Assembly: GCA_052144455.1 (NCBI GenBank)
Contig: JBKQQG010000101.1
Coordinates: 14,717 to 78,716, forward strand
From: Bryobacteraceae bacterium
Lineage (GTDB): Bacteria; Acidobacteriota; Terriglobia; Bryobacterales; Bryobacteraceae
Reading direction: 5' to 3'
Length of the DNA stretch: 64,000 nt
Below the pieces are notes generated by a model. The model was not told the origin of the DNA and made no database searches. It worked only from the letters and a program-made list of their open reading frames with translations. This document shows, one piece after another, positions 4,289-24,374 of this stretch. The stretch's first letter is position 1. Every line of letters starts with the position of its first letter. The position numbers and the translations under genes are program-made.

Positions 4289-4305
4289 GTGCTACACTGT
4301 AGCAC
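4289..4305 (+). promoter_or_regulatory. Perfect 8+1+8 palindrome GTGCTACA-C-TGTAGCAC overlapping an extended -10 (TGcTACACT), directly abutting the vapB ATG. Candidate TA operator plus leaderless promoter.
   Basis: Read directly from the sequence. The hexamer TACACT (4293..4298) is preceded by TGc. The ATG at 4306 lies 8 nt after the hexamer and there is no SD. Confidence 0.5.
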
Positions 4306-4554: not shown

Positions 4555-4560
4555 AGCGCC

Positions 4561-5596: not shown

Positions 5597-5610
5597 CGAT
5601 CTATCCGCGG

Positions 5611-6891: not shown

Positions 6892-7181
6892 GCAGCAACT
6901 TCCTTGTCCATAACGAGCTCTACCATGGCAAACGACCTCGCTCCCTGTTTTAGGCCAACCGCTGAGCAGGAGAGCCCCGTCGCTCTCAACGGGGACGCGT
7001 TTGCAAAACCGATCAGAGGAAGATCCCCAGTGGCGAGCGACGATTCCCAGTTGCGCTGCTCATGACACCCGGCCCCAGGAAATACCTGGCACCAATCAGA
7101 AAAGATATCACAATCATAAGACGCGCGTGCTGCTACGACTCGCCTTGCCGCGACATCCCGCCGTCCGGGTCAATCGGCAGC

Positions 7182-8525: not shown

Positions 8526-8673
8526 GGAAACCCTCCTGTGGGAAGTCGAACGGACGGAACAACCAGGCAGGAATTAGTCGGAGCCAAACAACCCAGGCCG
8601 GGATGCGGCAGGCAGGCTCACCCTCATACCTCTACTCTAACGCTGTTTGTCCGGATTTCCAAGGGAAAACGGA

Positions 8674-8754
8674 AGGGCGACGGCCGGGCGGCGGCGGGCT
8701 GGTGTGCTGGCCTCGTGAGGGCGACGGCCGGGCGGCGGCGGGCTGCTATGCTGG
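8674..8754. repeat. Two-copy tandem direct repeat, period 44 bp (28-nt perfect core AGGGCGACGGCCGGGCGGCGGCGGGCTG at 8674..8701 and 8718..8745)
   Basis: Read directly. The flanking 9 nt (GTGTGCTGG vs CTATGCTGG) are also similar. The repeat lies just upstream of the YkgJ GTG start. Confidence 0.85.
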
Positions 8755-8758
8755 CAGG

Positions 8759-9166
8759 GTGAAGGAACTGCGCTTCACCTGCCTCCGCGGGTGCACCAAC
8801 TGTTGCCGGCAACGGGGCTTCGTCTACCTTGCCGAGGCGGACTTGCGGCGGGCGGCGGCGTTCCTGGGCCTGAGCCCGCGAGCCTTCGAGCGCGGCTATG
8901 TGTACCGGACGAAGCACCTGCTGCGGCTGCGCAAGCCCCGCGGAGCCCAGTGCCCGTTCCTTCGGGAAGACGGCTGCGGCATACATCCCGCCAAACCGGC
9001 GCAGTGCCGCATGTTTCCGTTGTGGCCGGAATTGCTGGAGGACCGCCGGGAGTGGCGGGAGGTGGCCGGATACTGTCCGGGCATCGGCCGCGGCCCCGGA
9101 GTCTCGGTTGAGCGGATTCTGCACGCCGCGCGAGAAATGCGGAAAAGCTACCCGAGCATGTACTGA
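8759..9166 (+). CDS. YkgJ family cysteine-cluster protein (UPF0153)
   Basis: CLRGCTNCC ... CPFL..DGCGIHPAKPAQCRMFP cysteine pattern. A GTG start was chosen at 8759. The upstream part of ORF 8603.. covers the repeat region and looks non-coding. Confidence 0.65.
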   Translation: MKELRFTCLRGCTNCCRQRGFVYLAEADLRRAAAFLGLSPRAFERGYVYRTKHLLRLRKPRGAQCPFLREDGCGIHPAKPAQCRMFPLWPELLEDRREWREVAGYCPGIGRGPGVSVERILHAAREMRKSYPSMY

Positions 9167-9215
9167 CTGGTGTAATCTGGAGGGTGCTCGAATTCCGTGG
9201 GAGGAAAGAATTGGC

Positions 9216-10811
9216 ATGTTGAAGTGGATCTGCTTGTCATGGATGGTCTTTGCGATGGTGGCCGGCGCCCAGCCGACAATTAATACAGATGGCATTGTCA
9301 ATGCCGCCAGCTCGGCCCCGGTGGGATTGCCGAACTCTTCCATCGCCCAGGGGTCGATATTCTCGATCTATGGCGCCAACATGGGTCCGGTTGGAGGCGT
9401 GCTCGTCTCGGCTTGGCCGCTCCAGAAGAGCCTGGGTGGAGTCACTGTTCAAATCCAGGACGCTTCGGGCGCCCAACTGCTGGCCATACCGCTGTACGTC
9501 GGCGCCGGGCAGATCAATGCCCTCCTGCCTTCAGCGACGGCGGTGGGTACGGCAAACGCGACGGTAACCTATGCCGGCGCGACCAGCGCTCCGGCGCCCT
9601 TTACGGTCGCCCAGAGCAGCTTCGGTTCCTTCTCGCTGACCGCGGCGGGCAGCGGTCCCGGCGCAGTGCAGAACTACGTGCAGAATCCACCCTGGCCGAC
9701 CAACACGATCATCAGCGCGGCCCAGCCGGGCCAGGCAGTGATCCTTTATGGCACCGGGCTGGGACCGGTCACGGGCGACGAGACCATACCGCCAGTGCCG
9801 GTCGACCTGCGCAGCGGGCTCTCCCCGATGACGCTGTGGGTAGGCGGCCAGCAGGCGCCCATCGCCTATGCGGGACGCTCGACCTCCGCCGGCGAGGATC
9901 AGATCAACTTCAATGTGCCCATCAACATCACAGGCTGCTTCGTGCCGGTTGCGCTGCAGATCGGCAACGTGGTGAGCAATACCGTCTCGATCTCCATTTC
10001 GCCATCGGGTGGGGCGTGCCAGGACTCGTCCTTTCCCAACCTGAACCCCGTCGTTATGGAGGCTAACGGTCTGAGGGAGGGCACCCTGCTCCTCCAGCAA
10101 TACACGCTCCACCAGCCGCCCAGTGTCAATGGCGTAAGGCAATCGATCGCCGCCGAGTTCCTGAGCTATGCCTGGCCGTACCCCGTAGTCCTCTCGGGCA
10201 GCGTTGACGTCCACGGCGCCTGCACGGTGTCTGCCGGCGCAGGTATTTCCCTCCCGTTTACCCTCCTGGACGCCGGCTCGCCCGTGACCATGGCGACCCC
10301 GGGTGGGAACAACATGACGCTAATTCAACCGATAGCAACCCCGGTGGGATACTACTCCGGCGGTTCCCAGGGCGCCCTCACGGCGGGCGTGTACACCGTG
10401 AAAGACGCGTCGGGAGGCAAGGATGTGGGCTCCTTCAGCGCCTCGCTCACCCTGCCCGCGCCGATTGTTTTGACCAACCTGAACGACGTTGCCAACGGTA
10501 TAATCCTCGCGAACGGCTTTACCATCACTTGGACCGGCGGCAGCGGAGACGTTTACATCTCCGGCTCGTCCTCCGCGGTGGTGAACCGCAAAGCCGTGAC
10601 AGGATCATTCACATGCCTGGCTAACGCGTCGGACGGATCGTTCACGGTTCCGCTCTATGTGCTGGCGGCGCTCCCGCCCTCGGTGGCCGGTGGGGGGGGA
10701 GGGCTCCAAGTCGACAACTATGCGGTGACGACGACCTTCTCCGCCAGCGGTCTGGATCTTGGCCTGTTCCAGGCAGACTTCACCACGAATGAGTCTTTGA
10801 GCTTCTATTAG
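9216..10811 (+). CDS. Secreted protein with TIGR03437-type (Solibacter-type, IPT/TIG-like) repeats
   Basis: SD GGGAGGA lies upstream of the ATG at 9216, and there is a signal peptide (MLKWICLSWMVFAMVAGAQP). IVNAASSAPV...GSIFSIYGANMGP...GVTVQI...PLYVGAGQINALLPS recurs as QPGQAVILYGTGLGPV...LWVGGQQAPIAYAG...DQINFNVP. Confidence 0.7.
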   Translation: MLKWICLSWMVFAMVAGAQPTINTDGIVNAASSAPVGLPNSSIAQGSIFSIYGANMGPVGGVLVSAWPLQKSLGGVTVQIQDASGAQLLAIPLYVGAGQINALLPSATAVGTANATVTYAGATSAPAPFTVAQSSFGSFSLTAAGSGPGAVQNYVQNPPWPTNTIISAAQPGQAVILYGTGLGPVTGDETIPPVPVDLRSGLSPMTLWVGGQQAPIAYAGRSTSAGEDQINFNVPINITGCFVPVALQIGNVVSNTVSISISPSGGACQDSSFPNLNPVVMEANGLREGTLLLQQYTLHQPPSVNGVRQSIAAEFLSYAWPYPVVLSGSVDVHGACTVSAGAGISLPFTLLDAGSPVTMATPGGNNMTLIQPIATPVGYYSGGSQGALTAGVYTVKDASGGKDVGSFSASLTLPAPIVLTNLNDVANGIILANGFTITWTGGSGDVYISGSSSAVVNRKAVTGSFTCLANASDGSFTVPLYVLAALPPSVAGGGGGLQVDNYAVTTTFSASGLDLGLFQADFTTNESLSFY

Positions 10812-10901
10812 GGCGGTCAGGTTCCTGGCGGGCGGACGGGATTTTGGCGTTCCGGACGGCTTTGTCCGCTGCAAGTGATTGGTTCCAAACGCCACGCTCT
10901 C

Positions 10902-10917
10902 TGGCAAGGCGCTTGCT
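10902..10917 (+). promoter_or_regulatory. Candidate sigma54 (-24/-12) promoter TGGCAAGGCGCTTGCT upstream of flgB
   Basis: Matches TGGCAC-N5-TTGCW with correct GG/GC spacing. It ends only 15 nt before the flgB ATG, which is uncomfortably close. Confidence 0.4.
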
Positions 10918-10932
10918 CCTTGAGGGGCGGCC

Positions 10933-11268
10933 ATGCTGGATCCAATTGCCGGGAGCCTCGAGCATTACATGGACCTGCTGAGCGCCCGGCAGAAGCTGGT
11001 CGCCTCGAATATCGCTAACGCCGACACGCCGGGATACCAGACCAAAGACCTCGACTTTCAAGCCGAGTTCCGGAACCAGCTAGCGGGCGGCAGCCCCAGC
11101 GTCACGGAAGTCACGGGCCTGGAAACCAAGCACGACGGCAACAACGTGAGCCTGGACCGGGAGGCGCGGCTGCTGGCGGAGAACGCCATACGGTTCAGCG
11201 TCGCCTCGAACCTGCTGCGGGCGGAGATCCGCGAGGTGCGCAGCGCCATTAACGGAGGCGGCAGCTAA
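10933..11268 (+). CDS. flgB: Flagellar basal-body rod protein FlgB
   Basis: MLD...LSARQKLVASNIANADTPGYQTKDLDF is the FlgB N-terminal signature. Confidence 0.9.
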   Translation: MLDPIAGSLEHYMDLLSARQKLVASNIANADTPGYQTKDLDFQAEFRNQLAGGSPSVTEVTGLETKHDGNNVSLDREARLLAENAIRFSVASNLLRAEIREVRSAINGGGS

Positions 11269-11705
11269 TGAGCCTGTTCTCGCTGCTTTCGGTGAGCGCC
11301 TCGGGGATGGCCGCGCAACGCGAGCGGGCGGCCCTGCTGGTGGAGAATCTGGCCAACGCCGAGACCACGCGCACACCCGAGGGAGGGCCCTACCGCCGCA
11401 AGGATGCCGTTTTCTCGAGCGAAGCGGCCGACGAGCCCTTCGCCTCGGTATTCCAGACGGAGGTCGGCGCCACCGGGACGGGAGTGACGGTCTCGGACGT
11501 GATCGAGGATACGCGCCCGCCCGAGCAACGCTACCTGCCCGGCCATCCGGATGCCGACGCCAGCGGATATGTGTCGTTTCCGCGGGTCAACCCCGCCGAG
11601 GACATGGTGGACTTGCTGGGAGCGTCGCGCGGCTACCAGGCCAATGTGGCCGCCATGTCGGCGGTGAAGAGCATGATTAACAGCTCAATCGATCTGCTGC
11701 GCTAG
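11268..11705 (+). CDS. flgC: Flagellar basal-body rod protein FlgC
   Basis: SASGMAAQRERAALLVENLANAETTRT..GGPYRRKD, a C-terminal GYQANV and an ATG overlapping the flgB stop. Confidence 0.9.
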   Translation: MSLFSLLSVSASGMAAQRERAALLVENLANAETTRTPEGGPYRRKDAVFSSEAADEPFASVFQTEVGATGTGVTVSDVIEDTRPPEQRYLPGHPDADASGYVSFPRVNPAEDMVDLLGASRGYQANVAAMSAVKSMINSSIDLLR

Positions 11706-11716
11706 GAGCGACGCCT

Positions 11717-12016
11717 ATGTCTAGCCCGATCAGCCCGATTTCCCTGGCCACGCCGAGCCCGATCTCCATCCAGAGCCCCGGAGCGGCCAGCCAGCCCGGC
11801 GCCTTTCAGAACGCGCTCCAGAACGCCATCGGCCAGGTGGAGGACCTGCGCACCACCTCCGATCAAACCGTGCAGCGGTTCCTGAGCGGAGAGAACGAGG
11901 AACTGCACACCACGGTGCTGGCCACGCAACGCGCTGAGTTGGCCTTCGAGATGTTCATGCAGGTCCGCAACAAGGTAGTGCAAGCGTATCAGGAAGTCAT
12001 GCGCATGCAAATGTAA
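11717..12016 (+). CDS. fliE: Flagellar hook-basal body complex protein FliE
   Basis: 99 aa. F.NAL.NAI.QV...Q.......FL.GE...LH.V.....A.L....MQVRNKVVQAYQEVMRMQM is FliE-like. Confidence 0.85.
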   Translation: MSSPISPISLATPSPISIQSPGAASQPGAFQNALQNAIGQVEDLRTTSDQTVQRFLSGENEELHTTVLATQRAELAFEMFMQVRNKVVQAYQEVMRMQM

Positions 12017-12028
12017 TCCGGCCCACTC

Positions 12029-13717
12029 ATGCCTCAGTTCAAAAACCTCCTGGCCAGCCTCGGCATCCGGCAGCGGATCTATATTCTGGCCACCGTTGTG
12101 CTGGTGGCGGGCTCGCTGTATTGGCTGGTGAACTGGAGAAAGGAACAGGACTTCCGGCCACTGTACAGCGGCCTGGCGGCGGAGGACGGCAATGCGGTGC
12201 TTCAGAAGTTGCGGGAGACGGGAACCGATTTCCGCCTGAGCGAAAACGGGACCACGGTGCTGGTGCCCTCGTCGCGGGTGGCGGAACTGCGCTTGCTGAT
12301 GGCCGGCGCGGGCGTGCCCCGCAGCGGCCGGGTAGGCTTCGAGCTGTTCGACAAATCCAACTTCGGAGTCACCGACTTCACCGAGCACATCAACTACCGC
12401 CGGGCCATCGAAGGGGAGCTGGAGCGCTCGGTGATGTCCCTGTCGGATGTCGAGCAGGCGCGGGTGCACGTGACCTTTCCGAAGGACTCGGTGTTCCTGG
12501 AATCGCGGCAGCCAGCCAAGGCCAGCGTGATGGTGAAACTGAGGCCCGGGGCCAAGCTGTCGCCAGCTAACGTACTGGCGGTCTGCCACCTGGTGGCGAG
12601 CGCGGTGGAAGGCCTGGGTCCGGAGGCGGTGTCGGTTCTGGATATGAATGGCAACCTGCTGAGCCGGCCGCGCAGGGCTTCCACCAACGAGGGCGAAGAG
12701 CCTTCCGAGGCCGTGCTGGACTACCGTCACCAGATCGAGAAGGACCTGGTAGCCAAGATCACCTCCACGCTGGATCCGTTGCTGGGAAGCGAGAAGTTCC
12801 GCGCGGGGGCGACGGTAGAGTGCGACTTCACGGGGGGCGAGCAGAGCGAAGAAACCTACGATCCGACGCGCTCGGTGATGGTCAGCGCGCAGAAAACCGA
12901 AGACGTGAGCGGGACCAACCTGGCTTCCGGAGTTCCCGGCACGGCTTCCAGTCTGCCACGGCCCACCTCGCGGCCGGGGTCCTCCGGAGCCGGCACCACG
13001 CGGCGCACAGAGAACATCGCCTACCAGAGCAGCCGGCTGGTGCGGCGCACCCATTTGCCGCAAGGAACGGTCAGGCGGATGTCGCTCTCGGTGCTCCTGG
13101 ACCAGGATAGCCGCTGGGAGGGTAGCGGGGCCAAGGCCAAGCACGTCATCGAGCCGCCGACTCCCGAGAAGGTAAAGGTGATTCGCGACCTAGTGGCGGC
13201 CGCCACGGGGCTCAATCCCGAGCGCGGAGACCAGCTCATAGTGGAGAGCCTGCCCTTCGAGGCGACCTTGTCGAGCGAGCAGCCGGGGCTTATGCCGCCC
13301 AGCGCCGCAGTGCCCGCCGCGCCAGTCTCCTGGCTGGATCAACTGCTGCGGCAGAAGACCTCCGTGCTGATAGGCGTGGTGGCCGGGGTGGTTCTCCTGC
13401 TGGTCCTGATCATTGTGTTCCTGCTCTCGGTGGTGAGGAAGAAACGCCATGCCGTCCAAATGGCGGGCGCCATCGAGGGGGGCAGGGCGGCGCAACTCGA
13501 TTCCGGCGATGCCATCGAGCAACAAATGGAGAACAGACTGGTTGAGCAGGAGGACCAGAAGCGCAGGTTGGATGCGGCGGCGCTGAATTCGCTGAAACTG
13601 CCGCCGGTTACCACCAAGAAGTCCGAGGTGCTGACCAAGCACCTGGTGGAAACGGCCAAGAAAGACCCAACCGCCGCGGCGCAGATCCTGCGCTCCTGGT
13701 TGTACGACGAGAGCTGA
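12029..13717 (+). CDS. fliF: Flagellar M-ring protein FliF
   Basis: 562 aa. N-terminal TM, YscJ/FliF-type domain (LYSGLAAEDGNAVLQKLRETG..., RVAELRLLMAGAGVP), a second TM near residue 450 and a charged C-terminus. Confidence 0.9.
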   Translation: MPQFKNLLASLGIRQRIYILATVVLVAGSLYWLVNWRKEQDFRPLYSGLAAEDGNAVLQKLRETGTDFRLSENGTTVLVPSSRVAELRLLMAGAGVPRSGRVGFELFDKSNFGVTDFTEHINYRRAIEGELERSVMSLSDVEQARVHVTFPKDSVFLESRQPAKASVMVKLRPGAKLSPANVLAVCHLVASAVEGLGPEAVSVLDMNGNLLSRPRRASTNEGEEPSEAVLDYRHQIEKDLVAKITSTLDPLLGSEKFRAGATVECDFTGGEQSEETYDPTRSVMVSAQKTEDVSGTNLASGVPGTASSLPRPTSRPGSSGAGTTRRTENIAYQSSRLVRRTHLPQGTVRRMSLSVLLDQDSRWEGSGAKAKHVIEPPTPEKVKVIRDLVAAATGLNPERGDQLIVESLPFEATLSSEQPGLMPPSAAVPAAPVSWLDQLLRQKTSVLIGVVAGVVLLLVLIIVFLLSVVRKKRHAVQMAGAIEGGRAAQLDSGDAIEQQMENRLVEQEDQKRRLDAAALNSLKLPPVTTKKSEVLTKHLVETAKKDPTAAAQILRSWLYDES

Positions 13718-13781
13718 GGACGGCCCGGGCGACTATAGTTCTGGCCGGGCCAGTCCGATCAGTGGAGTTCGAGGAGACACC

Positions 13782-14414
13782 ATGCGAGCCAGCTCAACCG
13801 CCGCGGCAGACAGAGTCGTCCGGGCCGTGAAAACCGACCCGCGGGCGGGCAAATACCTGACCTTCGAACTGGGGCCCGAGGAGTTTGGCATCCCAGTGCT
13901 CAAAGTGCGGGAGATCATGGGGGTCCAGGACATGACCGCGGCGCACCAGACGCCGGCCTGCGTGAAGGGCGTGATCAACCTGCGCGGGAAGCCGATCCCG
14001 GTGGTGGATCTGAGGCTGAAATTCGGTCTGAACGAAATTCCGCACACGCAACGCACTTGCGTCATCGTGGTCCAGGTGGCCGGGGATGCCGGCCCCATGC
14101 CGATGGGAATCGTCGTGGATGGGGTCTCGGAGGTGCTGAACGTGGCCGCCGGGGACGTGGAGGATACCCGGGATTCCGGACAGGGGGCGACCACTCCCCA
14201 CATCCTGGGAATGGCCAAGGTCAAAGGGAAGGTCATTATCCTTCTGGAAATCGACCAGGTGCTGAGCAGTCAGGACTTGCAGGGCATCGCCCGCCTCGTG
14301 CAATGCGTGGCGGCGCCACCGGGCGCTACGAGACCCGCGGGTGGTCAAACAGCGTGGATTTCGCCCTTCTCGCGCAGGCGGGCGGCCGCGGCCTCGGGAG
14401 AGATGTCGCGCTGA
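13782..14414 (+). CDS. cheW: Chemotaxis coupling protein CheW (with a ~45-aa non-CheW tail overlapping the convergent galT)
   Basis: [30 protein letters not shown]....[25 protein letters not shown] is a CheW-domain signature. The first in-frame stop is at 14412..14414. Confidence 0.8.
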
Positions 14415-15379
14415 GGCATGGCCAGCATCTCATAACCCACCAGAAACTTGCGAACCGTGGCCGAACGCAGCAGCGGCGGGTAGAAGTGCGCGTGGAAATG
14501 CCACTCGGGATGGGCCTGGCCATCGGTGGGCCGCTGATGAAAGCCTAGCGAGTATGGAAAGGACACCTGGAACAGGTTGTCGTAGCGCGCGGTGAGGCGC
14601 TTGAGGATGCCGGCCAGGTCGTCCCGCTCGGTGGCCGTCAATTGGTCAAGCGCGGTCGAATGCCGCACTGGAAGCAGCAAGGTCTCGAACGGCCAGACGG
14701 CCCAAAAGGGAACCAGCGCCACGAAGGAGGCGTTGCGGCAGACGATGCGCTCGGCGGCGGCGCACTCGATGGCCAGGTAGTCGCACAGCAGGCAGGTGTG
14801 CCTGGTGCGCGCGTATTCGGCTTGCGCGTCCTGTTCCTTGCGCGGCTCATTGGGCAGAGTGTGGTTGGCCCAGATCTGGCAGTGCGGATGGGGATTGCTG
14901 CAGCCCATCATGGCGCCGCGATTCTCGAAGATCTGCACGTGATTGATCCAGGGAAGCGCGCCCAATTCTTGGTATTGCCCTATCCAGGTGTCTACCACCT
15001 GGCGCAGGGCGGGCGCCTCCATGCGGGAAACCGTCAGATCGTGACGCGGCGAGAAACAGATGACGCGGCAGATGCCCGGCTCGGACTCGGCCACTAACAG
15101 ACCGCCTTCGCCGGAGCGATCCATTGGAGTGTCGGGCCGCAACGCGGCGAAATCGTTTTCGAAGACGAAGGTCGAGGTGTAATTGGGATTTCGCACTCCG
15201 CCGGCTCGAGGGTTGCCAGGGCAAAGGTAACACTCCGGGTCGTAAACCGGTTGGCTCTGCGCGGCGGCCTTCTCGACTTGCCCTTGCCAGGGACGCTCGG
15301 TGCGGTGCGGAGACACCAGCACCCATTCGCCGGTGAGCGGGTTAAAGCGCCGGTGGGGGGTGCGGCTCCAATCGAGCAT
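14345..15379 (-). CDS. galT: UDP-glucose--hexose-1-phosphate uridylyltransferase (classical GalT)
   Basis: [28 protein letters not shown] and [12 protein letters not shown] (E. coli-type HPH active site). 344 aa. Confidence 0.9.
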
Positions 15380-15409: not shown

Positions 15410-16168
15410 TTACAATTCCAGCTTGCCGTGGTAGAGCATGTCCTTCAGGGTGAACTTCACCTTGATGGCGCTGGGGCCCAGGGCGGTCTCGAAGGAGACT
15501 TCCTTGTCGTCGAGGCCGATAGCGGCGGCGCGCGGGAACAGGAAGCTGAACGAGCGGCCCTGGAGAGTGGCGGAGGTCTCGATCCGCGCTGGCGGCAGGG
15601 CGCCCTTGCCCTTGATCCTGAGCGCAGTGGCCGCCTTCATCCGATCCGTGCGCTCGCTATCGGCCCCCGCCATTCCACCCCCGCCAGGGCCGCGATTCGG
15701 GAGTCCGCTCACGGTGACGACGTAGAACTCCTGCGCCCACTCCGCCACCTTCTTCGCATTCTCGGCCGGCCCGGAACGCGGAGCGGCGTCACGCAAGGGA
15801 GCAGCGCTCTCCCAGCGCACCACGACCTTCCCCATAGCGAAAGTCGCGCCACCGGGGCCGTCCCGGCCAGCGGGCCCGCCCATCGCTCCGCCGTCCAAGT
15901 TGGCGCCAGCCGCGCCTTGATGGCTGATGGCGAGAGGTGGACCGCTCGCGCTACCCCTGCTGGGAGCGCCCATGTCCGGAGAGCCCGCTCGGCCCGCGCC
16001 GCCGGCGGAAGGAAGGATGACCTCCTTGGCCCAGGGCGACTTGGTCTGCAGCTTCTGGACCTCTTTGTCCGTCCAGTCGGAAGGTTGCTTATCCTGCCAG
16101 AACTCGCCCGCCAACAGAACGGCGGAACCCGAGATCACGACGATGATGCCCGCAGTGCGTAGTGACAC
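15410..16168 (-). CDS. Membrane-anchored or secreted protein of unknown function, paralog 2 (tandem duplicate of 16281..17045)
   Basis: GTG at 16168 preceded by SD GGAGGAGGA. Single N-terminal TM, then the motif EFWQDKQPSDWTDKEVQKLQTKSPWAKE, a Gly-rich linker and the conserved C-terminus KFTLKDMLYHGKLEL. Confidence 0.7.
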   Translation of the reverse strand: MSLRTAGIIVVISGSAVLLAGEFWQDKQPSDWTDKEVQKLQTKSPWAKEVILPSAGGAGRAGSPDMGAPSRGSASGPPLAISHQGAAGANLDGGAMGGPAGRDGPGGATFAMGKVVVRWESAAPLRDAAPRSGPAENAKKVAEWAQEFYVVTVSGLPNRGPGGGGMAGADSERTDRMKAATALRIKGKGALPPARIETSATLQGRSFSFLFPRAAAIGLDDKEVSFETALGPSAIKVKFTLKDMLYHGKLEL

Positions 16169-16280
16169 GATGTCCTCCTCCGGTAGTAATACCACGGGCG
16201 CGGGACGGCTGGCGAGTTGCTTGCCAACCCCGTAACTCTTGTTCAGTTGGGATGCACTTTTGCCCCGAGAGGGGCCGCCG

Positions 16281-17045
16281 CTACAATTCCAGCTTCCCGT
16301 GGTAGAGCATGTCCTTCAGGGTGAACTTCATCTTGACGGAGTTCGGCCCGAGCTGGGTTTCGAAGGAGAGTTCCTTGTCGTCCAGGCCGATGGCGAAGTC
16401 GCGCGAGAACAGGAAGCTGGTCGCGGGGCCTTCGGGGGTAGTGAAGGTCTCGATGCGCGCGGGCGAGACGGAGTTCTTGCCCTTGATTCGGAGCACGGTG
16501 AGCATCTTCAGGCGCTCGATGCGCTCGGAATCAAGCGTTTCCTGGCCGCCTCCGCCTCCATACCGCGAATTGGAGAGTCCACTGACCGTGACCACGTAGA
16601 ATTCCTTCGACCAATCCGCTATATTCTTCACATCCGCGGGCGCTCCAGCGCGAGCGGCCACGTCGCGCAGCGGCGCGGCGCTATCCCAGCGTATGATCAC
16701 CTTCGGAGCGGCCACGGCCGGGTTATCTGCGCCACCTGCCGCCCTGCCCGCACCCCCGCCCGGGCCGCCCATGCCACCTCCGCCGCCCATGCTACCAGGG
16801 CCGCCCATCCCACCCATGCCACGGGCGCCCCCGCCCAAGCCGCCGCTGTCCCCCCGGTCCATCTGCCCCATATGACTGCCACCCATAGTCAGGATGGCCT
16901 CTTTGGCCCATGGCGACCTGGTTTTCAGTCTTTGGATCTCCTTTTCCGTCCACTCGGAGGGTTGCTTGTCCTGCCAGAACTCGCCCGCCAACAGAACGGC
17001 GGAAGCGGAAATCAGGGCGATCAGGCCCGCACTTCGAAATGACAT
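16281..17045 (-). CDS. Membrane-anchored or secreted protein of unknown function, paralog 1, with a Gly/Met-rich low-complexity linker
   Basis: ATG at 17045 preceded by SD AGGAGGA. Same architecture as 15410..16168. The linker is GGLGGGARGMGGMGGPGSMGGGGGMGGPGGGAG. Confidence 0.7.
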   Translation of the reverse strand: MSFRSAGLIALISASAVLLAGEFWQDKQPSEWTEKEIQRLKTRSPWAKEAILTMGGSHMGQMDRGDSGGLGGGARGMGGMGGPGSMGGGGGMGGPGGGAGRAAGGADNPAVAAPKVIIRWDSAAPLRDVAARAGAPADVKNIADWSKEFYVVTVSGLSNSRYGGGGGQETLDSERIERLKMLTVLRIKGKNSVSPARIETFTTPEGPATSFLFSRDFAIGLDDKELSFETQLGPNSVKMKFTLKDMLYHGKLEL

Positions 17046-17069
17046 ATTAGTTTCCTCCTGCAAACACGG

Positions 17070-19160
17070 TTACGGTAGCAATACCATGGGCGCGCGACGG
17101 AAGGCAAATTTCTTGCCAACCTCGTCCATCACGTTCACCTGGCAGGTGTAGGGGCCGGGGGCAAACTTGGCCAGTGGAATCTGGAAGTGCACGCCCACCA
17201 CATTCCCCTTTTCAGGGGTCTCGGTCAGCCGGAGCGGCTCCGATTGAAATGCCCTCAGCTTCCCGCGGAAGAAACTCACGCTGGCGGAAATCTGAGCGGT
17301 CTTCCGCGTGGGTTCCGCGCCCGGGTCGTAAACCTCGAAGAACACGTACAGGTCCTGGTCCGTGCGATAAACCTTGGTGATGCTGGGGACCAGCTTGTAG
17401 CCGTCCTTGACCAAGGGGTCGTCGGCCAGCAGTTTCTGGTTGCGCTCGGCGGAGCCCACCGCGGCCGAGAGCGGTTCGCGCTGATTGGCCCAAACCACTG
17501 AACTGAGCCGCAGGTACTTCTGCTCGGCCACCACGTCGGGCACGCTGAATTTGGTCTCGAAGGTCCCCATCTTGCCGGTCGCATTCTCGCGGCACAGGAA
17601 CTTGAGAGTGTAATCCCCCGGGGTCAGGGTGAAGCCGCCGCCGTATTCCAGGAAGCGCTTGCCCAGTTGCCCCACGTTCCCGCCTTTGAGTTTCACTTCA
17701 ATGCTATCGCGGACCGTCCCGGCGATTCTGCCGTGGGCATCGCGCACCTGGCCGATGAAATCCAGGACCGTGCTCTCGTTGCCGCCCTTGCGGGCCAATT
17801 CGAGTTCGGAGCCGGGAATCTTCACCGCCAAGGGCACGAAATAGCGGTCGCGCGCCAGGCGGAAGTAATTGAGTTCCAGGGCCAGCGAGAGATCGGTGAG
17901 CGGGTCGCCGAGCAGCAGCGCCTCCTGGAGTTGCCGCTCCTTGTCCGTGGAATTGTAGTCCTTGAACTGCTTGGGGGCGAAGTAGCCCGAACGATAGTCC
18001 AGTTTGGCCTTCAGATGCGAGGCGAGCTGCACCTTGATGCGGCGGTAACGCCCATCCAGGGCGGGGTTGGTCGAGTAGTAGCCGAGGATGTAATAGCTGG
18101 AAAGGCTCTCCTGGGCCTGCCGCATCCCCATCGCCAGGTCGTTGGTATCCAGCAGCGCCTTGCCGCCGGTGTCTTCGGCGAGGGTGAAGAGGGTCTCCTG
18201 GGAATCGTTGAAGGTCGCGCTAAGCTGCCGCTGAGCGGCTCCCGAGAACATCGCGGCGCCTCGGGTGGAGGCTCTCGTGGCGTCGCCGCCCGCGGGCGTG
18301 GCCACCAGGCCGCGAGCGTCGATGGAGTAAAACGAGACGTTCGAGCGCACCGCCGCATTGATCGTAGCTCGCAGTTGCGCCTGGTTTTCAACGCCGGTCT
18401 TGTTGACTCCGCCCGAAAAGTAAACCAGCGCCTTCTTCTCGGGAAGCGAGGCCAGCATCCTGGCGGCGGACTCGAGCGCGGCCAACTTCCGGTCGGTATT
18501 GAAAACGTTGAACTCGGTGTCGTCGGCCGTAAACGCGGCGCCGGTATCCTGAGAGGAGTCGTCGCCGGTATCGCCCAGGGCCGCCAATTCGCTGGCCTCG
18601 CCGATGTGGAAGCCCTTGATGATCCCGATCAGGTTCTCCCGGTCGGCCGTGAAGTCCTGCAAGACCTGCAATTCATTGGCGAAGGTCATGATGGCGACCA
18701 GGTCCGCCGCGGTCATCTGTTTCTGCAGGAACTCAATGGCGGCCTTCTGGGCCCGGATCTGCTCCTGCGGCTCCATCGAGGAGAAATCGAAGAACAGCAC
18801 CATCAGCCGGTGGTCCTGGTAGCGGATCTGACCTGGCTTCGAAGTGGTGATGGCCTGGCGCACCGGGGCCTTGGGAGCAGGCGCGGGGGCACGAGCCTTG
18901 AGGGCGGGAGGGGGCTCCAGCGGTGCCAGCGGCGTGGAGTCCAGCTTCTGGTACTCGAATACCGAGACCTTCTGAGGCTTATCGTCCTCCGTGACGGTGA
19001 AGTCGCTGGCTTTGAGATTGGGAATGGGATGCCCCTCGGAGTCGCGCACCGCCACATTGACGATCACCAGTTCGCTGGTGACGTGGAAGGTGGCTTGCGG
19101 CTGCGACTGTTGTCCGACTGCGGCGAGCGCCGAAAGAACGACTAAGGGAGCGATTCGCAT
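17070..19160 (-). CDS. VWA domain-containing protein, acidobacterial TIGR03436-type
   Basis: Signal peptide, then FHVTSELVIVNVAVRDSEGHPIPNLKASDFTVTEDDKPQKVSVFEY (the hallmark N-terminus of the VWFA-related acidobacterial family). A VWA core (MVLFFDFSSM...) follows. 696 aa. Confidence 0.8.
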   Translation of the reverse strand: MRIAPLVVLSALAAVGQQSQPQATFHVTSELVIVNVAVRDSEGHPIPNLKASDFTVTEDDKPQKVSVFEYQKLDSTPLAPLEPPPALKARAPAPAPKAPVRQAITTSKPGQIRYQDHRLMVLFFDFSSMEPQEQIRAQKAAIEFLQKQMTAADLVAIMTFANELQVLQDFTADRENLIGIIKGFHIGEASELAALGDTGDDSSQDTGAAFTADDTEFNVFNTDRKLAALESAARMLASLPEKKALVYFSGGVNKTGVENQAQLRATINAAVRSNVSFYSIDARGLVATPAGGDATRASTRGAAMFSGAAQRQLSATFNDSQETLFTLAEDTGGKALLDTNDLAMGMRQAQESLSSYYILGYYSTNPALDGRYRRIKVQLASHLKAKLDYRSGYFAPKQFKDYNSTDKERQLQEALLLGDPLTDLSLALELNYFRLARDRYFVPLAVKIPGSELELARKGGNESTVLDFIGQVRDAHGRIAGTVRDSIEVKLKGGNVGQLGKRFLEYGGGFTLTPGDYTLKFLCRENATGKMGTFETKFSVPDVVAEQKYLRLSSVVWANQREPLSAAVGSAERNQKLLADDPLVKDGYKLVPSITKVYRTDQDLYVFFEVYDPGAEPTRKTAQISASVSFFRGKLRAFQSEPLRLTETPEKGNVVGVHFQIPLAKFAPGPYTCQVNVMDEVGKKFAFRRAPMVLLP

Positions 19161-19162
19161 GG

Positions 19163-22100
19163 CTAAAACCGGAAACGCAGATTGACCTTCATGGTCCGCA
19201 TGGCGCCGGTGGAAAGCGGCAATCCGTAGTTGGAAGCGTTCACCGTGGTCGCGAAGCCGGCGACGTTCATGATGTTGAGCGCATTGGTGCTATCCAAGCG
19301 CAAGTCCAGGCTGCGGCGAGTTTCGCCTAACGGGAAGGTTCGGCCCAGGGATAGGTTGGCGACAAAGCTGAAAGGCCCCGGAATCGTATCGCGGCCCGCA
19401 TCGCCATACTGCCCGGCGGGGGGTAGCGCGAAGGCCAGCAGGTTGAACAGGCCGGTTCCGTTGTCCACCGGCAACCCGGTCGCTTCAGCCCGGGAGCTTC
19501 CGGAGACGCCGGTGCCGCTGGCGTCGGACCGGTTGCCCAGAACCGTCGCGGTGGCGGGTGCTCCGGTTTGCGCGGTAATGGAGCCGCTGAGAGTCCAGTT
19601 TCTAACTAGCGTACCCTTCCAGCCCTTGGCAGCAAAGTGGTTCGTGGTTCCACTGCCCGGGCTCGAGATCGTGTAGGAGAGGCTCAGCGAGTGGCGATGA
19701 TCGAAGTTGGAGAGGCCGCGCTCGGCGCTCAGATCGTAAAAGTTCTGGGCAACGACGGCGTTGCCGCCCGCGCCGCTGTAGCTCGAGACATCGTCGATGG
19801 ATTTCGAGAAGGTGTACAGCAGATTGCCGGAAAGTCCGTGGCGGAAGCGCCGGCTCAGGCGCGCCTGGGCGGCATGGTAGATGGAATTCCCATTCGAGCT
19901 GTCGTAAATGAAAGCGCCGGCGTCTTCGATGGGGCGGCGATTCTCGGCCGTGAGCGGGGAACCCGGCGGCGCAACGTTCGGGATTCCCTGGACGTCCAGG
20001 CGCGTGCCCTTGGTGCCCAGGTAGCCCAGTTCCGCCACCAGCGAATGCGGCAGAGTGCGCTGGACGGAGAAGTTCCAGGTCTGGGCGTAGCCAATCCGGT
20101 AGTTGCGGTCCACGGCGTAGGTGTTGGCGATCTCGGTGGCGGAGGTGGTTGGGGCGGCCAAGTTGCATGGAAAGCCGTTCTGCAAGGTGAGCGGGCTCGC
20201 CAGACTGGTGATCAAGTTGCAAGAATTGGAGAACGGCGGCTGCTGAGCCAGTTGGGACGCAATCTGGTTGTAGACGCTGCCGTTGTAGTAGATGCCATAA
20301 CCGGCCCGCACCACCATCTCCTTCTTGGGGAATGGCTTCCAGGCTATGGCCCCGCGGGGCGCGAAATTGTCGCGATCCGGATTGACCAGCCCCTGAGGGA
20401 ACGCGCCGCTGTAGGGGCCGATGGTTCCGGGAGTTACCGGCGCCACGGCGCTGAATCCCGCGGCGACATCCAGGTTCACCATCCGGTCGTATTTCTCGAT
20501 TAGGGGCGTTCGATACTCATAACGCAGCCCGATCAGGATGGTGAGGTTGGGCCGAAGCCGCCAGTCGTCCTGAGCGTAGCCGGTGTAGAGGGATCCCCGG
20601 AAATAGGTGTCGGCGCCCTGGTAACGGATGGTGCTGGTGTTGGGCAGTCCCAGCAGGAAATCGGCGAAATCGACGCCCGTCCCCGCGAGTGGCTGGCCGT
20701 TGGCATCCAGGGCGCTGGTCTCCAGCCCGCTGAAGGTGAACGAACCGCGGCCATTCTGATCGCTCAGGTTGTTGAGTTGCATGCGCTGATACCCGCCGCC
20801 GAAGGTCCAGGTGTTCTTCCCGTGGACCACGATCAGGCTGTCGCTCACGCCTGTGGTTTGGTTGCGCATGAGCGACGAGGCGCCGTCCGAGAGACCTCCG
20901 AAGTTGGTGAAGGAGAGGTTGGGCGGGCCGTAGTCGAGCGGGTTGCTGGAAGTGCCCGCGATGCCCAGTTGGGAGGCCACGTCGGCGCCACTGGCGAAGT
21001 ACGGAACGGTGGTGCTGCGGTTGCGCGAGAAGGTGAAGTGCAAACTGTCGATGACGCCCGTCTTGAGCGTGCGCGTCCAGGAAAGGTCGCTACTGATTCC
21101 GCGCCCGGTCTGCGTATCCTGGAAGCCGTAAAGCTGGGAGGTCTCCGCATCGCGCTGCTGGAGGGCGAAGGAACCCCCGATGCGGTCCTTCTGGGTCAGG
21201 CTATGGAATACGCGCAGACTCAGGTTATCCGTGTTCTGGGGCACGGAATTCACGATCTGGTAGTTCTGCACCTGGCCGGGCTGGTTCGGCAAAGGGATGA
21301 ACGAGAGCAGCCCGGTGGCGATCGGACTGATGCGCGTGGAGGGAATCACGTTGTTCGGGAACGGCGATCCGGTGGTGGGGTCGTAGATGGTTCCCAGCCC
21401 GGTCGCCTGCGAGAAATCGCCCGTGCGCTCCAGTGCGGAGGGCATCGTGGAGGTGGCGTTGTACGGATTGCGGCTGCGGGTGGCGAAATAGCTCGCGAAA
21501 AGGAACGTCTTCGGGCTGTCGACCACCTTGGGAATTCGCAGCGGCCCGCCGCCGGAAAGAGCGATGCGCGCCTGAGCGTAAGAGGGCTTGTTCACTTCCT
21601 GGCCGGTGAGCGAGTAGGGGCGCGCGTCCAGCGCGGAGTTGTCCAACGTGAAGGACAGGTTGCCGTGGAAAGTCTCCCGGCCCCGCCCGGCGCGGTTGCC
21701 GAACACCGTGGATCCCTGCCGATTCTGCCAACCGGCACGCTGGCCCCCACCTGGACCGCCCGGACCGCCCCGCCCGCCGAATCCTCCCGGGGGACCGCCA
21801 AAACCGCCCGGGCCGCCCATCCCTGGCCCGCCCGGACCGCCGCCCATGCCGGGGCCGCCACCCATCCCAGGAGGGCCGCCCATGCCTCCCGGTCCACCCT
21901 GGAAGCCGGGAGGATTTCCCGCCTGCTGGCCTGGAGGCCCACCGGGACCGCCGAATCCGCCCCCCGGTCCCAGAGCCGCCATGTCCGCGTCCTGGCGCGG
22001 TAGTTGCAATCCTCGGCTCAGGCTGCCATTGACCAGGAAGGATGCGTTGGCGTTCTGGCTCTGATCGTCCGGGTTCTGCCCGTCGGACGGCGACGCGGCG

Positions 22101-22618
22101 GCCAGCGCGGCCAGCGCCTCCGCCTGTATCGTCTGGTTCACGCGTAACTGCCGGAACCGGCCACCGGGCCCATTTGGTCCCGCGCCTGGCGGGCCGTTAA
22201 CCTGCGCTGCTTGGGGCGCGACCGGCTTGGCTGCGGCCACCGGGGCCGGGGCCGGCGGCTTCTCTGCAGTAGCTGGCTGGGGTCCGGCTGCCGGAGGCGC
22301 AACCGCATGAGCGGGCGCAGCCTCAAAGGGGCTCATCTTCAGATCCCAAGCCAGCTTCGAGTCGGCGGGCACGTTGACCGTGCGCTGAGACGTCTCGAAC
22401 CCGAAAGCCTCCACTTGAATGGTCCAGGCTCCGGGGCCCAAGTCCTCAAATAGGTAGCGGCCCGATTCATCGGTGCTGGTGACCAGCTTATTGTCGCCCA
22501 GAGTGGCTGTCACGACCGCGCCGGGGACCGGCAGTCCGGCCGAGACAATCGAACCACCCTGTTGGGCGCCGGCCAGCGCACCGGCCGCCAACGCGGCCAG
22601 GGTGAGGAATCGTCGCAT
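19163..22618 (-). CDS. TonB-dependent-receptor-like outer-membrane barrel with an N-terminal carboxypeptidase-regulatory-like domain and long Ala/Pro and Gly/Pro/Met low-complexity inserts
   Basis: The start is taken at MRRFLTLAALAAGALAGAQQ (ATG at 22618; the ORF track start at 22777 lacks a signal peptide). CarboxypepD_reg-like VTATLGDNKLVTSTDESGRYLFEDLGPGAWTIQVEAFGF. The C-terminal barrel ends ...MKVNLRFRF (aromatic terminus). Confidence 0.75.
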   Translation of the reverse strand: MRRFLTLAALAAGALAGAQQGGSIVSAGLPVPGAVVTATLGDNKLVTSTDESGRYLFEDLGPGAWTIQVEAFGFETSQRTVNVPADSKLAWDLKMSPFEAAPAHAVAPPAAGPQPATAEKPPAPAPVAAAKPVAPQAAQVNGPPGAGPNGPGGRFRQLRVNQTIQAEALAALAAASPSDGQNPDDQSQNANASFLVNGSLSRGLQLPRQDADMAALGPGGGFGGPGGPPGQQAGNPPGFQGGPGGMGGPPGMGGGPGMGGGPGGPGMGGPGGFGGPPGGFGGRGGPGGPGGGQRAGWQNRQGSTVFGNRAGRGRETFHGNLSFTLDNSALDARPYSLTGQEVNKPSYAQARIALSGGGPLRIPKVVDSPKTFLFASYFATRSRNPYNATSTMPSALERTGDFSQATGLGTIYDPTTGSPFPNNVIPSTRISPIATGLLSFIPLPNQPGQVQNYQIVNSVPQNTDNLSLRVFHSLTQKDRIGGSFALQQRDAETSQLYGFQDTQTGRGISSDLSWTRTLKTGVIDSLHFTFSRNRSTTVPYFASGADVASQLGIAGTSSNPLDYGPPNLSFTNFGGLSDGASSLMRNQTTGVSDSLIVVHGKNTWTFGGGYQRMQLNNLSDQNGRGSFTFSGLETSALDANGQPLAGTGVDFADFLLGLPNTSTIRYQGADTYFRGSLYTGYAQDDWRLRPNLTILIGLRYEYRTPLIEKYDRMVNLDVAAGFSAVAPVTPGTIGPYSGAFPQGLVNPDRDNFAPRGAIAWKPFPKKEMVVRAGYGIYYNGSVYNQIASQLAQQPPFSNSCNLITSLASPLTLQNGFPCNLAAPTTSATEIANTYAVDRNYRIGYAQTWNFSVQRTLPHSLVAELGYLGTKGTRLDVQGIPNVAPPGSPLTAENRRPIEDAGAFIYDSSNGNSIYHAAQARLSRRFRHGLSGNLLYTFSKSIDDVSSYSGAGGNAVVAQNFYDLSAERGLSNFDHRHSLSLSYTISSPGSGTTNHFAAKGWKGTLVRNWTLSGSITAQTGAPATATVLGNRSDASGTGVSGSSRAEATGLPVDNGTGLFNLLAFALPPAGQYGDAGRDTIPGPFSFVANLSLGRTFPLGETRRSLDLRLDSTNALNIMNVAGFATTVNASNYGLPLSTGAMRTMKVNLRFRF

Positions 22619-22816
22619 CAAGGCAAGCCCCACGCATCCTCCATCTCGGCGATATGTCCTCGACCTAAAGGATGTGCCAGAGAATGTGAAGGTTACCGCT
22701 CTCAATCGATCCGCCGTAAAGAAATATAAGAGAAAGGGAAAGGGGGAAAGACTTGCGATTCCGAGTGCAGAACTCACGGATGGGGCCGATACGGACTATT
22801 GTACAGGAGTCCCCCT

Positions 22817-23062
22817 ATGGTAAATGCAGTAAGCACGACAACCCCGGTCCAGACCGCTCATCAGCCGCCTAAGCCACCCGAGCAGCAGCAACAGGCGAAA
22901 GCGGCCTCCCCGGCGGTGGATACCGTTCAAATCAGCAGTGCCGCTTTGACGGCCCTCGCAGCCAAGCCGCCGGAAGCCACCGAGACCTTCTCGCAGACGC
23001 TCAAGGAGGCTGGCCAGGGCGATCCGAAAGCCATCGCGATGCTCGCCAAGCACAAGGAATAG
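22817..23062 (+). CDS. Small hypothetical protein (81 aa)
   Basis: SD AGGAG lies 7 nt before the ATG at 22817. The N-terminal half is Pro/Gln-rich, followed by DTVQISSAALTALAA. I assigned no confident family. Confidence 0.45.
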   Translation: MVNAVSTTTPVQTAHQPPKPPEQQQQAKAASPAVDTVQISSAALTALAAKPPEATETFSQTLKEAGQGDPKAIAMLAKHKE

Positions 23063-23117
23063 CGCGAAAAAAACCTGCCCGTGGCGAGGTGGCGGCGGCG
23101 GATGATATCGTAGTCGG

Positions 23118-24374
23118 GTGAGACGAACTGCCCGCTATCTGTTCCTCCTCAGCCTCTGTTTGCCTCTCAGCGCGCAGGATCCCGGCTCGGGGGCAGTGCC
23201 GACCGGGCGTTACCGGAATCTGTTCGTCGAGGCCGGCATCCCCGGGAAGGAAGTAAAGAAGAAGATCGGCGCGGCCTTCCAGCAGCTCTTTCACGGCGAT
23301 CCTAAGACCGAAGCGATCTACTACGCGGCCGGGCGAAACGTCAACGGGGACTTGGCCTACATTCTCGACGTGATCAACAACGACGTGCGCAGCGAGGGGA
23401 TGTCGTACGGCATGACGATCGCCGCGCAGCTCGACAAGAAGCCCGAATTCGACGCCCTCTGGAACTGGGCCAAAACCTACATGTATCGCAGCGAGCCCGG
23501 CCACCCGGCGCGCGGCTTCTTCTCCTGGTCGATGAAAGTGGACGGCACGCCGAACGATGAGATGCCTGCCCCCGACGGCGAAGAATACTTCACCATGGCG
23601 CTGTATTTCGCCGCCGGACGGTGGGGCAACGGCAGCGGCATCTACGATTATCGGGCTGAGGCCGACCGGCTGCTCACCAACATGCTGCACCGGGAGGTGA
23701 TCGCCGGACAGACGAAACGCGGCCCCTACGCCAGCGGCAACATGTTCGAGGAAAAGTACAAAATGGTGCGGTTTACGCCGGGGCTGGAACATAACGGATT
23801 CACGGACCCGTCCTACCACCTGCCCGCTTTCTACGAGCTGTGGGCGCGCTGGGCACCGCCCGCCGACCGTTCATTTTGGGCGCAGGCTGCCGCGGCCAGC
23901 CGCGACCTCTTCTGGAAGGTAGCCGATCCCACTACCGGCCTCGCGCCCGACTACGCCAATTTCGACGGCACACCCTACACAGGGCGCTGGAACGCGGGGG
24001 CCGCGAATTTCCGCTACGATGCCTGGCGCACGGCCATGAACTGGTCCGTGGACTGGGCCTGGTGGGCTAAGGACGCTCGCGAGCGGCAACTCAGCGATCG
24101 TTTGCAGGCGTTCTTCGCCAAGCAGGGGATGGCCTCCTATGGAAGCCTGTTCACGCTGGATGGCCGCCCGCTCGATGCCGGACACGCATCCGCCCTGGTA
24201 GCGATGAACGCCGTGGCCAGCCTGGCGGCAACTAACCCGCGCGCGAAGGATTTCGTGAAGGCGTTGTGGGAAACTCCGATTCCGTCGGGGCACGGCCGAT
24301 ATTACGATGGGATGCTTTACCTTCTCGCGATGCTGCATACCAGCGGGGAGTTCCGCGCCTGGGCCCCGAAGTAG
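23118..24374 (+). CDS. Glycoside hydrolase family 8 (Rex8A-like reducing-end xylose-releasing exo-oligoxylanase type)
   Basis: Signal peptide. DLAYILDVINNDVRSEGMSYGMTIAAQLD, FSWSMKVDG, APDGEEYF and YDAWR patterns are typical of GH8. Confidence 0.75.
   Translation: MRRTARYLFLLSLCLPLSAQDPGSGAVPTGRYRNLFVEAGIPGKEVKKKIGAAFQQLFHGDPKTEAIYYAAGRNVNGDLAYILDVINNDVRSEGMSYGMTIAAQLDKKPEFDALWNWAKTYMYRSEPGHPARGFFSWSMKVDGTPNDEMPAPDGEEYFTMALYFAAGRWGNGSGIYDYRAEADRLLTNMLHREVIAGQTKRGPYASGNMFEEKYKMVRFTPGLEHNGFTDPSYHLPAFYELWARWAPPADRSFWAQAAAASRDLFWKVADPTTGLAPDYANFDGTPYTGRWNAGAANFRYDAWRTAMNWSVDWAWWAKDARERQLSDRLQAFFAKQGMASYGSLFTLDGRPLDAGHASALVAMNAVASLAATNPRAKDFVKALWETPIPSGHGRYYDGMLYLLAMLHTSGEFRAWAPK

Follow-up and report, generated by a model that had tools for sequence, protein, structure and literature searches.

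A barrel gene and a VWA gene as a two-gene module in Terriglobia, with two exported paralogs beside it in a Bryobacteraceae genome

Whether closely spaced envelope genes also work together is the question raised by a cluster of four minus-strand genes in a 64,000-nucleotide (nt) stretch of DNA from a Bryobacteraceae bacterium (GenBank assembly GCA_052144455.1, contig JBKQQG010000101.1, positions 14,717 to 78,716 of the forward strand), referred to below as the window. The cluster encodes a large outer-membrane barrel, an exported protein of the TIGR03436 von Willebrand factor type A (VWA) family and two related proteins with a shared SPWAK motif, here called paralog 1 and paralog 2, and it is followed by galT. 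A preliminary description, made from the sequence of the window alone, proposed that the four gene products form one envelope system. Its coordinates, its junctions (2 nt for barrel/VWA, 24 nt for VWA/paralog 1, 112 nt for paralog 1/paralog 2 and 30 nt for paralog 2/galT), its Shine-Dalgarno sites, its motifs and its domain calls all hold on re-reading. Tight spacing alone is nevertheless misleading here, as only two of the four genes travel together. The explanation developed below is that the locus may be a composite, in which a class-wide barrel-VWA module stands next to a lineage-specific, duplicated exported protein, and not a four-part machine; we regard the chances of this explanation as evenly balanced.

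The association between the barrel and the VWA gene is broader than the preliminary description supposed. Full-length orthologues of the VWA protein are found in 24 of 30 other Bryobacteraceae genera, with 45-76% identity and one to five copies per genome, and in 113 of 201 Terriglobia genomes, with identities of about 38-85%. There are 29 VWA-orthologue loci in the Bryobacteraceae set, two of which end at contig ends, and at all 27 informative loci a barrel gene lies directly upstream and is co-directional. The same arrangement, with the barrel gene directly upstream on the same strand, is present at 18 of 18 loci that were sampled in eight or more further families of the class. The spacer between the two genes measures from -1 to 11 nt in 19 of the 22 measurable junctions, and is most commonly 2 nt. 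The earlier proposal of a physical coupling between the VWA protein and an outer-membrane barrel is thus upheld at 45 of 45 informative loci (27 from the family and 18 from other families), with tight junctions, and gene order strongly supports the assignment of the barrel and the VWA gene as a conserved two-gene module that is class-wide in Terriglobia. A literature search returned no paper describing the pair, and a full-text search returned none mentioning TIGR03436.

The genes upstream of the barrel vary. In 8 of 30 loci, most of them not from the Bryobacteraceae, the gene immediately ahead of the barrel belongs to the TIGR03435 family, while the window and most Bryobacteraceae loci have neither a TIGR03435 gene nor a BlaR-type gene in that position. 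At three distant loci (L159, L166 and L168), the neighbour of the barrel is a small protein with a weak match, well short of the cut-off (E 1e-7 to 2e-5), to the NCBIfam entry 'NOV5WD8W family nitrogen cycling protein'; it is encoded on the strand of the barrel in L159 and L166 and on the opposite strand in L168. Elsewhere in the genome that contains the window (below, the source genome), at least five long TIGR03436-like VWA open reading frames (ORFs) are found on both strands around one barrel gene (C29:144931-148677, within the region C29:139000-160200). On contigs C51 and C103 of the same genome, VWA-like ORFs lie directly upstream of a barrel, which is the reverse of the order in the window.

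The barrel protein starts with a signal peptide, followed by a CarboxypepD_reg domain (PF13620, residues 26-95, E 3.7e-11, 43.7 bits against a cut-off of 32.3) and a long match to OMP_b-brl_4 (PF25183, residues 315-1143, E 3e-181). Its match to PF00593 (TonB_dep_Rec) is weak (E 0.001, 19.4 bits, cut-off 27). The Plug domain PF07715 had no match in the full-length protein at E <= 0.1, and none in this barrel at E <= 0.01 in a six-frame search of the whole genome, a search in which PF07715 did match 15 other places, including nine other barrel-model ORFs of at least 896 residues. It was likewise without a match in three distant VWA-paired barrels, of which the N-terminal 500 residues were searched. 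Simple regular expressions for plug motifs proved too strict as a control, and the genome search with PF07715 was therefore combined with an alignment of 13 VWA-paired barrels and, as controls, two plug-bearing barrels of the source genome. In all 13 paired barrels, an Ala/Pro/Lys-rich tract stands in place of the TonB-box strand and the LPLNGR segment, and the segment EF.V..FGR..G.IN is missing; both controls preserve these features. The only plug remnant is a short LL[IV]NGS, separated from the FHG-like start of the barrel either by about nine residues or by a long Gly/Pro/Met tract. In the window barrel, residues 96-314 comprise, in order, an Ala/Pro-rich tract, the conserved remnant FLVNGS and a Gly/Pro/Met tract in which these three amino acids account for up to 95% of a 40-residue segment. 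Such a tract is found in 15 of 15 VWA-paired barrels of the Bryobacteraceae and in about 7 of 18 in other families. Judged by the alignment, which outweighs the missing hidden Markov model (HMM) match as evidence, the VWA-paired barrels are without a TonB box and most of the plug. The name 'CarboxypepD_reg/TonB-type barrel' that the protein had been given is accurate in its CarboxypepD_reg and barrel parts (PF13620 and PF25183), but the protein is not a canonical TonB-type receptor, with no Plug match and a replaced TonB box.

Gly/Met/Pro tracts of this kind (at least 16 Gly and 4 Met per 40 residues) are found in only 4 of approximately 5244 coding-like ORFs of the source genome. The carriers are the window barrel (21677-22333), paralog 1 (16725-16874), a second Oar-type barrel and a GspD-like secretin, and the latter two lie at C19:16361-19315 and C44:88632-91001. 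Each of these proteins is exported, and three of the four are channel proteins of the outer membrane.

The VWA protein matches TIGR03436 (acidobact_VWFA) over residues 24-396, an alignment that spans positions 2-324 of the 324-position model (E 1.8e-83) and scores 280.7 bits where 81.25 are required, while its match to VWA_2 (PF13519) is under the cut-off (22.8 bits against 27). It is a clear member of the TIGR03436 family, but is set apart from it by an extra C-terminus, with approximately 300 conserved residues beyond the model throughout the 696-residue subfamily, by a degenerate metal ion-dependent adhesion site (MIDAS) and by its strict pairing with a plug-less barrel. The leaders of the subfamily are of the Sec type and end in A-x-A followed by QQ; no conserved lipobox cysteine was found in them, and a Pfam scan of the VWA protein gave no SusD/RagB match. 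With the MIDAS positions assigned from the TIGR03436 consensus, and not from a structure, the first motif reads D-x-[ST]-[SG]-M in 29 of 29 orthologues (D-F-S-S-M in the window), as against the canonical D-x-S-x-S. The Thr of the site is kept (FNTD), and the later Asp is replaced by Ser or Gly, again in 29 of 29. The metal site of the VWA type is thus predicted to be degenerate throughout. Neither the single sequence nor a 14-sequence profile of the VWA protein found a relative in the PDB, and a PDB sequence search with the barrel gave no match.

These properties permit a sketch of how the two proteins may work together. The VWA protein would be exported by the Sec pathway and would then engage its cognate barrel, and the start of its gene 2 nt after the barrel stop may allow translational coupling. 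Because it has no TonB box, the barrel could not be a TonB-energised importer, and it would instead be a dedicated docking or translocation partner at the outer membrane. A plug-less barrel of the 22-strand class would need something that closes it or passes through it, and the VWA protein, as its always-adjacent partner, is the obvious candidate; in the Bryobacteraceae, a disordered Gly/Pro/Met tract would lie where the plug was. Our best guess is that the barrel docks the VWA protein and holds or exposes it at the surface, that it exports it, or that it is closed by it. A more specific version, in which the pair is a TonB-independent, two-partner-like system of Terriglobia with the tract as a flexible gate, and in which the SPWAK-motif proteins represent a new exported fold, is possible and rather doubtful.

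Several known systems share one or another of these features. In LptD/LptE, the separately encoded LptE, a lipoprotein, sits in the LptD barrel in a plug-and-barrel arrangement; the comparison is an analogy only, with no homology claimed, and the window VWA protein, unlike LptE, has no lipobox. The SusC/SusD pairs of Bacteroidota are also similar, in that the gene for a large barrel with a CarboxypepD_reg-type extension precedes that of a partner with which it is co-transcribed, but the VWA partner is no SusD/RagB lipoprotein, and its barrel lacks the plug and the TonB box. Oar of Myxococcus xanthus, from the Oar subclass of TonB-dependent transporters, is required for secretion of the protease PopC, and both its Plug domain and its TonB box are needed for this function (PMC6434023). 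Oar, like the window barrel, has a CarboxypepD_reg extension and then a large barrel, a likeness of domain layout, and it offers a precedent for outward movement of a protein; it differs in having the Plug and TonB box that the window barrel does not. PopC, its cargo, is no VWA protein, and is not described in PMC6434023 as encoded beside oar. A VWA protein coupled to outer-membrane barrels is represented by the adhesin CglB in the Glt outer-membrane platform of Myxococcus (PMC9946355). CglB is a lipoprotein, whereas the window VWA protein has no lipobox; this is again an analogy, and no homology is claimed.

The two paralogs do not follow the distribution of the module. The surroundings of 60 paralog-family loci from many genera were searched, 8 kb to each side, with profiles from the VWA-like and barrel-like genes of the source genome, which has about 32 VWA-like and about 30 barrel-like ORFs. 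Two of the 60 loci have a VWA-type gene in this range, namely the same-genus orthologue and one locus in another family. A barrel is present within that distance in 11 of the 60, which is about chance for some 30 copies per 5 Mb, and none of the barrels near the paralog family carries a Gly/Pro/Met tract, except that of the same-genus orthologue L033. Clustering of the genes at the 60 loci revealed no conserved neighbour of the family, only lineage-specific synteny, with unrelated neighbours that include a GT2 glycosyltransferase, YdjC, MacB/FtsX permeases, PadR and an HpcH aldolase; distant members are flanked by housekeeping genes, for example rpsT and panB, or lie beside hisS. In the opposite direction, neither a paralog-family gene nor galT is found downstream of the VWA orthologue at any of the 29 loci in other Bryobacteraceae genera. 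The phyletic patterns are also discordant: in one genus (g25) the paralog family is present in 14 of 14 genomes and this VWA type in 0 of 14, while in one family of the class (f10) the corresponding counts are 2 of 28 and 22 of 28.

The order barrel-VWA-paralog-galT is restricted to genus-level relatives that share the flanking genes cheW, fliF, GH8 and hutH. Because the adjacency is confined to close relatives with the same flanks, it represents one inherited arrangement and not a recurrent association. The number of paralog copies beside the module varies even there, with one in the same-genus genome G149, one in contigs with the orthologue P0008 and a tandem pair in the contig with P0007. 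The preliminary description had singled out synteny of the four genes in related genomes as decisive for its proposal, and had suggested a search for the SPWAK-motif domain beside TIGR03436 genes; synteny fails for the paralogs (0 of 29 VWA loci), and the search places a VWA gene near only 2 of 60 paralog-family loci. Judged by these neighbourhoods, the paralogs are unrelated to the module, and merely sit beside the barrel-VWA pair in one lineage.

A single independent VWA adjacency was found, in another family of the class. At this locus (L052, G113:C2:1272000-1289000, positions 2856-13755), a paralog-family gene is part of a repeated unit with the order MacB/FtsX permease, PadR, VWA (572 residues), paralog, PadR, VWA (566 residues) and MacB/FtsX permease. 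The VWA proteins there belong to another subfamily (about 26% identity).

The paralogs themselves show 55% identity in a full-length alignment (E 2e-87), and share the N-terminal motif FW..K.PS.WT.KE...L..SPWAK and the C-terminal KFTLKDMLYHGKLEL. Paralog 1 is composed of a signal peptide, the SPWAK motif, a disordered Gly/Met loop (residues ~58-107) and an alpha/beta C-terminal part ending in GKLEL; the loop of paralog 2 is more diverged, and Met-poor relative to that of paralog 1. The same layout extends to the family, which features a leader, FW.DK.PS.WT.KE...LL..SPWAK, a Gly-rich stretch (median 67 residues, 49% Gly, 8% Pro, 7.6% Met), VRW.SA.P.R.A and an alpha/beta part with F.FPR...LDDKEV.F...KF.LKDM.Y.GKLEL at the very end. 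A conserved Ala follows the leader, two to three residues ahead of the FW motif with which the conserved mature part starts, and 86 of 246 family members have a twin-arginine motif resembling [ST]RRxFL (regular expression [STAGN]?RR.[hydrophobic]2), while the leaders of the window paralogs have a single Arg (MSFRSAG and VSLRTAG). Because of the conserved Ala and the twin-arginine-like leaders of relatives, the N-terminus is better read as a cleavable signal peptide of the Sec or Tat type than as a membrane anchor. The 'one N-terminal TM' of the preliminary description is accordingly replaced by a probable cleavable leader, while the shared motif and layout that it listed are retained.

A relative without the Gly-rich stretch is encoded in the source genome (contig C49, 204 residues), and belongs to a sister subfamily of at least 189 clusters. 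The two subfamilies are homologous over their full length (hhalign probability 99.7%, E 1e-26), and the Gly-rich stretch is therefore an insertion inside one domain. The stretch is disordered, as had been noted, but it is not a linker between an anchor and a domain. No Cys, His or acidic pair is conserved over both subfamilies, and the conserved residues of the paralog family are mostly Trp, Pro, Phe, Arg and Lys. Given this composition, and expansion by tandem duplication, a binding or structural role may be tentatively suggested, with the paralogs as soluble periplasmic or secreted proteins, and neither enzymes nor anchored partners.

The family is large. A word-indexed search detected 121 clusters, all annotated as 'hypothetical', and the named ones are from Bryobacterales or Acidobacteria. 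A 40-member profile extended this to 4013 representatives (50% clusters) at E <= 1e-3, with 845 at E <= 1e-30, nearly all of them single-domain proteins of 230-300 residues. The family is present in 113 of 201 Terriglobia genomes, many of which have two to nine matches, and tandem copies are common. Its genes usually stand singly or in tandem arrays, in contexts unrelated to one another. The window paralogs match no Pfam or NCBIfam family at E <= 0.1, and a search of 40 family members against the same databases at E <= 1 gave only scattered low-complexity matches. The earlier statement that they could not be assigned to a named family is therefore borne out, and no mapping to a well-characterised family was found.

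The AlphaFold2 model of paralog 1 has a predicted local distance difference test (pLDDT) score of 76.8, which exceeds 90 in the core and drops under 50 in the loop, and a predicted template-modelling (TM) score of 0.71; the corresponding overall scores for the protein without the Gly-rich stretch are 91.6 and 0.83. A Foldseek comparison of both models, as the preliminary description had recommended for the paralogs, gave no match in the PDB at E <= 1e-3 (best E 1.4e-2, TM <= 0.29). The C-terminal strands bear a weak resemblance to generic Ig-like, CopC or NEAT sandwiches, there is no match among viral models, and a sequence search of the PDB with the paralogs returned low-complexity noise only. 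Two further relationships were considered and discarded. A suspected link to GWxTD proteins (TIGR04514) was dropped for lack of any such NCBIfam match in 40 members, and one to TIGR03435 was rejected by hhalign probabilities of 0.1-0.3% for both paralog subfamilies.

The history of the pair of paralogs can be partly read from a relic. A stretch of 49 nt upstream of paralog 2 can be aligned to the final codons of the VWA gene, and one frame reads VVLLPEE where the VWA protein ends in PMVLLP*. The start of the duplicated unit therefore lay within the VWA gene, at its 3' end. The same relic is present at P0007, the paralog-2 orthologue, and the duplication is therefore older than the split of these genomes. 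The identity between the two paralogs at the DNA level is mosaic, with 93% in the 5' motif, about 40% across the loop and 92% over the final 60 nt, and synonymous sites are conserved at both ends, a pattern that suggests gene conversion at the ends. On the composite explanation, one paralog copy would have come between the module and galT, its later duplication would have carried along the final ~50 nt of the VWA gene, and the shared transcript of the five genes would be a local accident of gene order.

The other explanations of the locus differ in which genes they join. The preliminary description joined all four into one trans-envelope capture or adhesion system, with the paralogs anchored in the inner membrane and reaching the VWA protein and the barrel by means of their Gly-rich linkers. 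The tight spacing without terminator-like sites, the order barrel-VWA-paralog-galT kept in close relatives, the rare Gly/Met/Pro tracts in both the barrel and paralog 1, and the independent VWA-paralog-VWA arrangement at L052 are all in keeping with such a system. We consider it very unlikely all the same, as the paralog family is missing from 29 of 29 VWA-orthologue loci of other genera and has a VWA gene near 2 of its own 60, the two phyletic distributions disagree, the leaders appear to be cleavable, with a Tat-like form in a third of the family, the Gly loop is inserted within one folded domain and is no anchor-to-domain tether, and the barrels near the paralog family in other lineages are ordinary ones without a tract. 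The composite explanation, in turn, has to face some contrary points. The Plug HMM also misses about five other long barrels of the source genome, which leaves the HMM evidence weak on its own, and the remnant and the low-complexity region of the barrel could fold into a small plug. The tract that the barrel has in common with paralog 1 could point to a functional link not captured by synteny, and cleavage of the paralog leaders was judged by eye from an alignment and with a regular expression.

Two other explanations concern only the barrel and the VWA gene. If the barrel had a plug after all, in a very divergent form, and imported in the ordinary TonB-dependent way, the VWA protein could be a substrate-capturing partner comparable to SusD in SusC/SusD, possibly for a galactose-containing polymer. 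The gene order, with the barrel first and the partner second as in susC-susD, the CarboxypepD_reg extension, the weak PF00593 match (E 0.001), the LL[IV]NGS plug remnant and the proximity of a GH8 gene (23118-24374) upstream and galT downstream would fit. An importer is unlikely, however, when every aligned VWA-paired barrel has lost its TonB box and most of its plug, no Plug HMM match is found, the VWA protein has neither a lipobox nor a SusD/RagB match, and galT and GH8 do not lie beside the module outside the genus-level clade. It could also be that two expanded families have simply inherited a gene order, with no joint mechanism, and the numbers of barrel-like and VWA-like ORFs in the source genome (~30 and ~32), most of the VWA paralogs being without an adjoining barrel, would permit this. 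That the same order, strand and few-nucleotide spacers recur in 45 of 45 loci, down to a VWA identity of about 38% and in at least eight families, and that the paired barrels have plug loss in common as a derived feature, makes it highly improbable. The composite explanation separates the paralogs from the module and leaves the barrel and the VWA protein as partners.

Acidobacteria are among the most abundant soil bacteria, and to our knowledge no role has been assigned to their expanded 'TonB-dependent receptors' and VWA families. A VWA subfamily that is always paired with a plug-less barrel subfamily provides a concrete, testable unit, in which the barrel may export the VWA protein, hold it or be closed by it. 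The loss of the plug is also a warning against annotation of VWA-paired barrels as importers. The paralog family comprises thousands of exported proteins with a confidently modelled fold but without known relatives, and lends itself to structure determination and to localisation.

The features of the locus are collected in Table 1. Shine-Dalgarno sites (AGGAGG and GGAGGAGG) lie 6-8 nt ahead of the two paralog starts. No terminator-like site was found on the minus strand from the barrel to galT, and read-through to galT is therefore likely; the five genes from the barrel through galT are probably on one transcript here, with galT probably transcribed by read-through from the upstream genes.

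Table 1. Coordinates of the genes and sequence features at the locus, in positions of the window
Feature	Position	Strand	Basis
Barrel, Oar-type outer-membrane protein of 1151 residues	19163-22618	minus	PF13620 and PF25183 matches
Low-complexity region of the barrel (residues 96-314) in place of TonB box and plug	21677-22333	minus	alignment
VWA, exported VWA-like protein of 696 residues (TIGR03436)	17070-19160	minus	TIGR03436 match
Degenerate first MIDAS motif FFDFSSM in the VWA gene	18774-18794	minus	29 orthologues
Paralog 1, 254 residues, ATG start	16281-17045	minus	no Pfam/NCBIfam match
Relic of the 3' end of the VWA gene upstream of paralog 2	16181-16229	minus	DNA alignment with 17070-17110
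Paralog 2, 252 residues, GTG start	15410-16168	minus	no Pfam/NCBIfam match
galT, galactose-1-phosphate uridylyltransferase	14345-15379	minus	NF008724, E 4e-162

The named relatives are metagenome-assembled genomes of Bryobacteraceae and Bryobacterales that come from peat and fen. On the upstream side of the barrel (22619-24374), the window contains a plus-strand ORF of 81-87 residues without a family match, and the GH8 glycoside hydrolase gene (E 1.7e-24). The order of the small ORF and GH8 is also found in the close relative L129; in other genera, the two do not lie beside the module. At the other end of the locus, a cheW-like plus-strand ORF (13782-14414) overlaps the 3' end of the convergent galT by about 70 nt, while the genes called cheW in relatives encode 163-174 residues and do not overlap galT.

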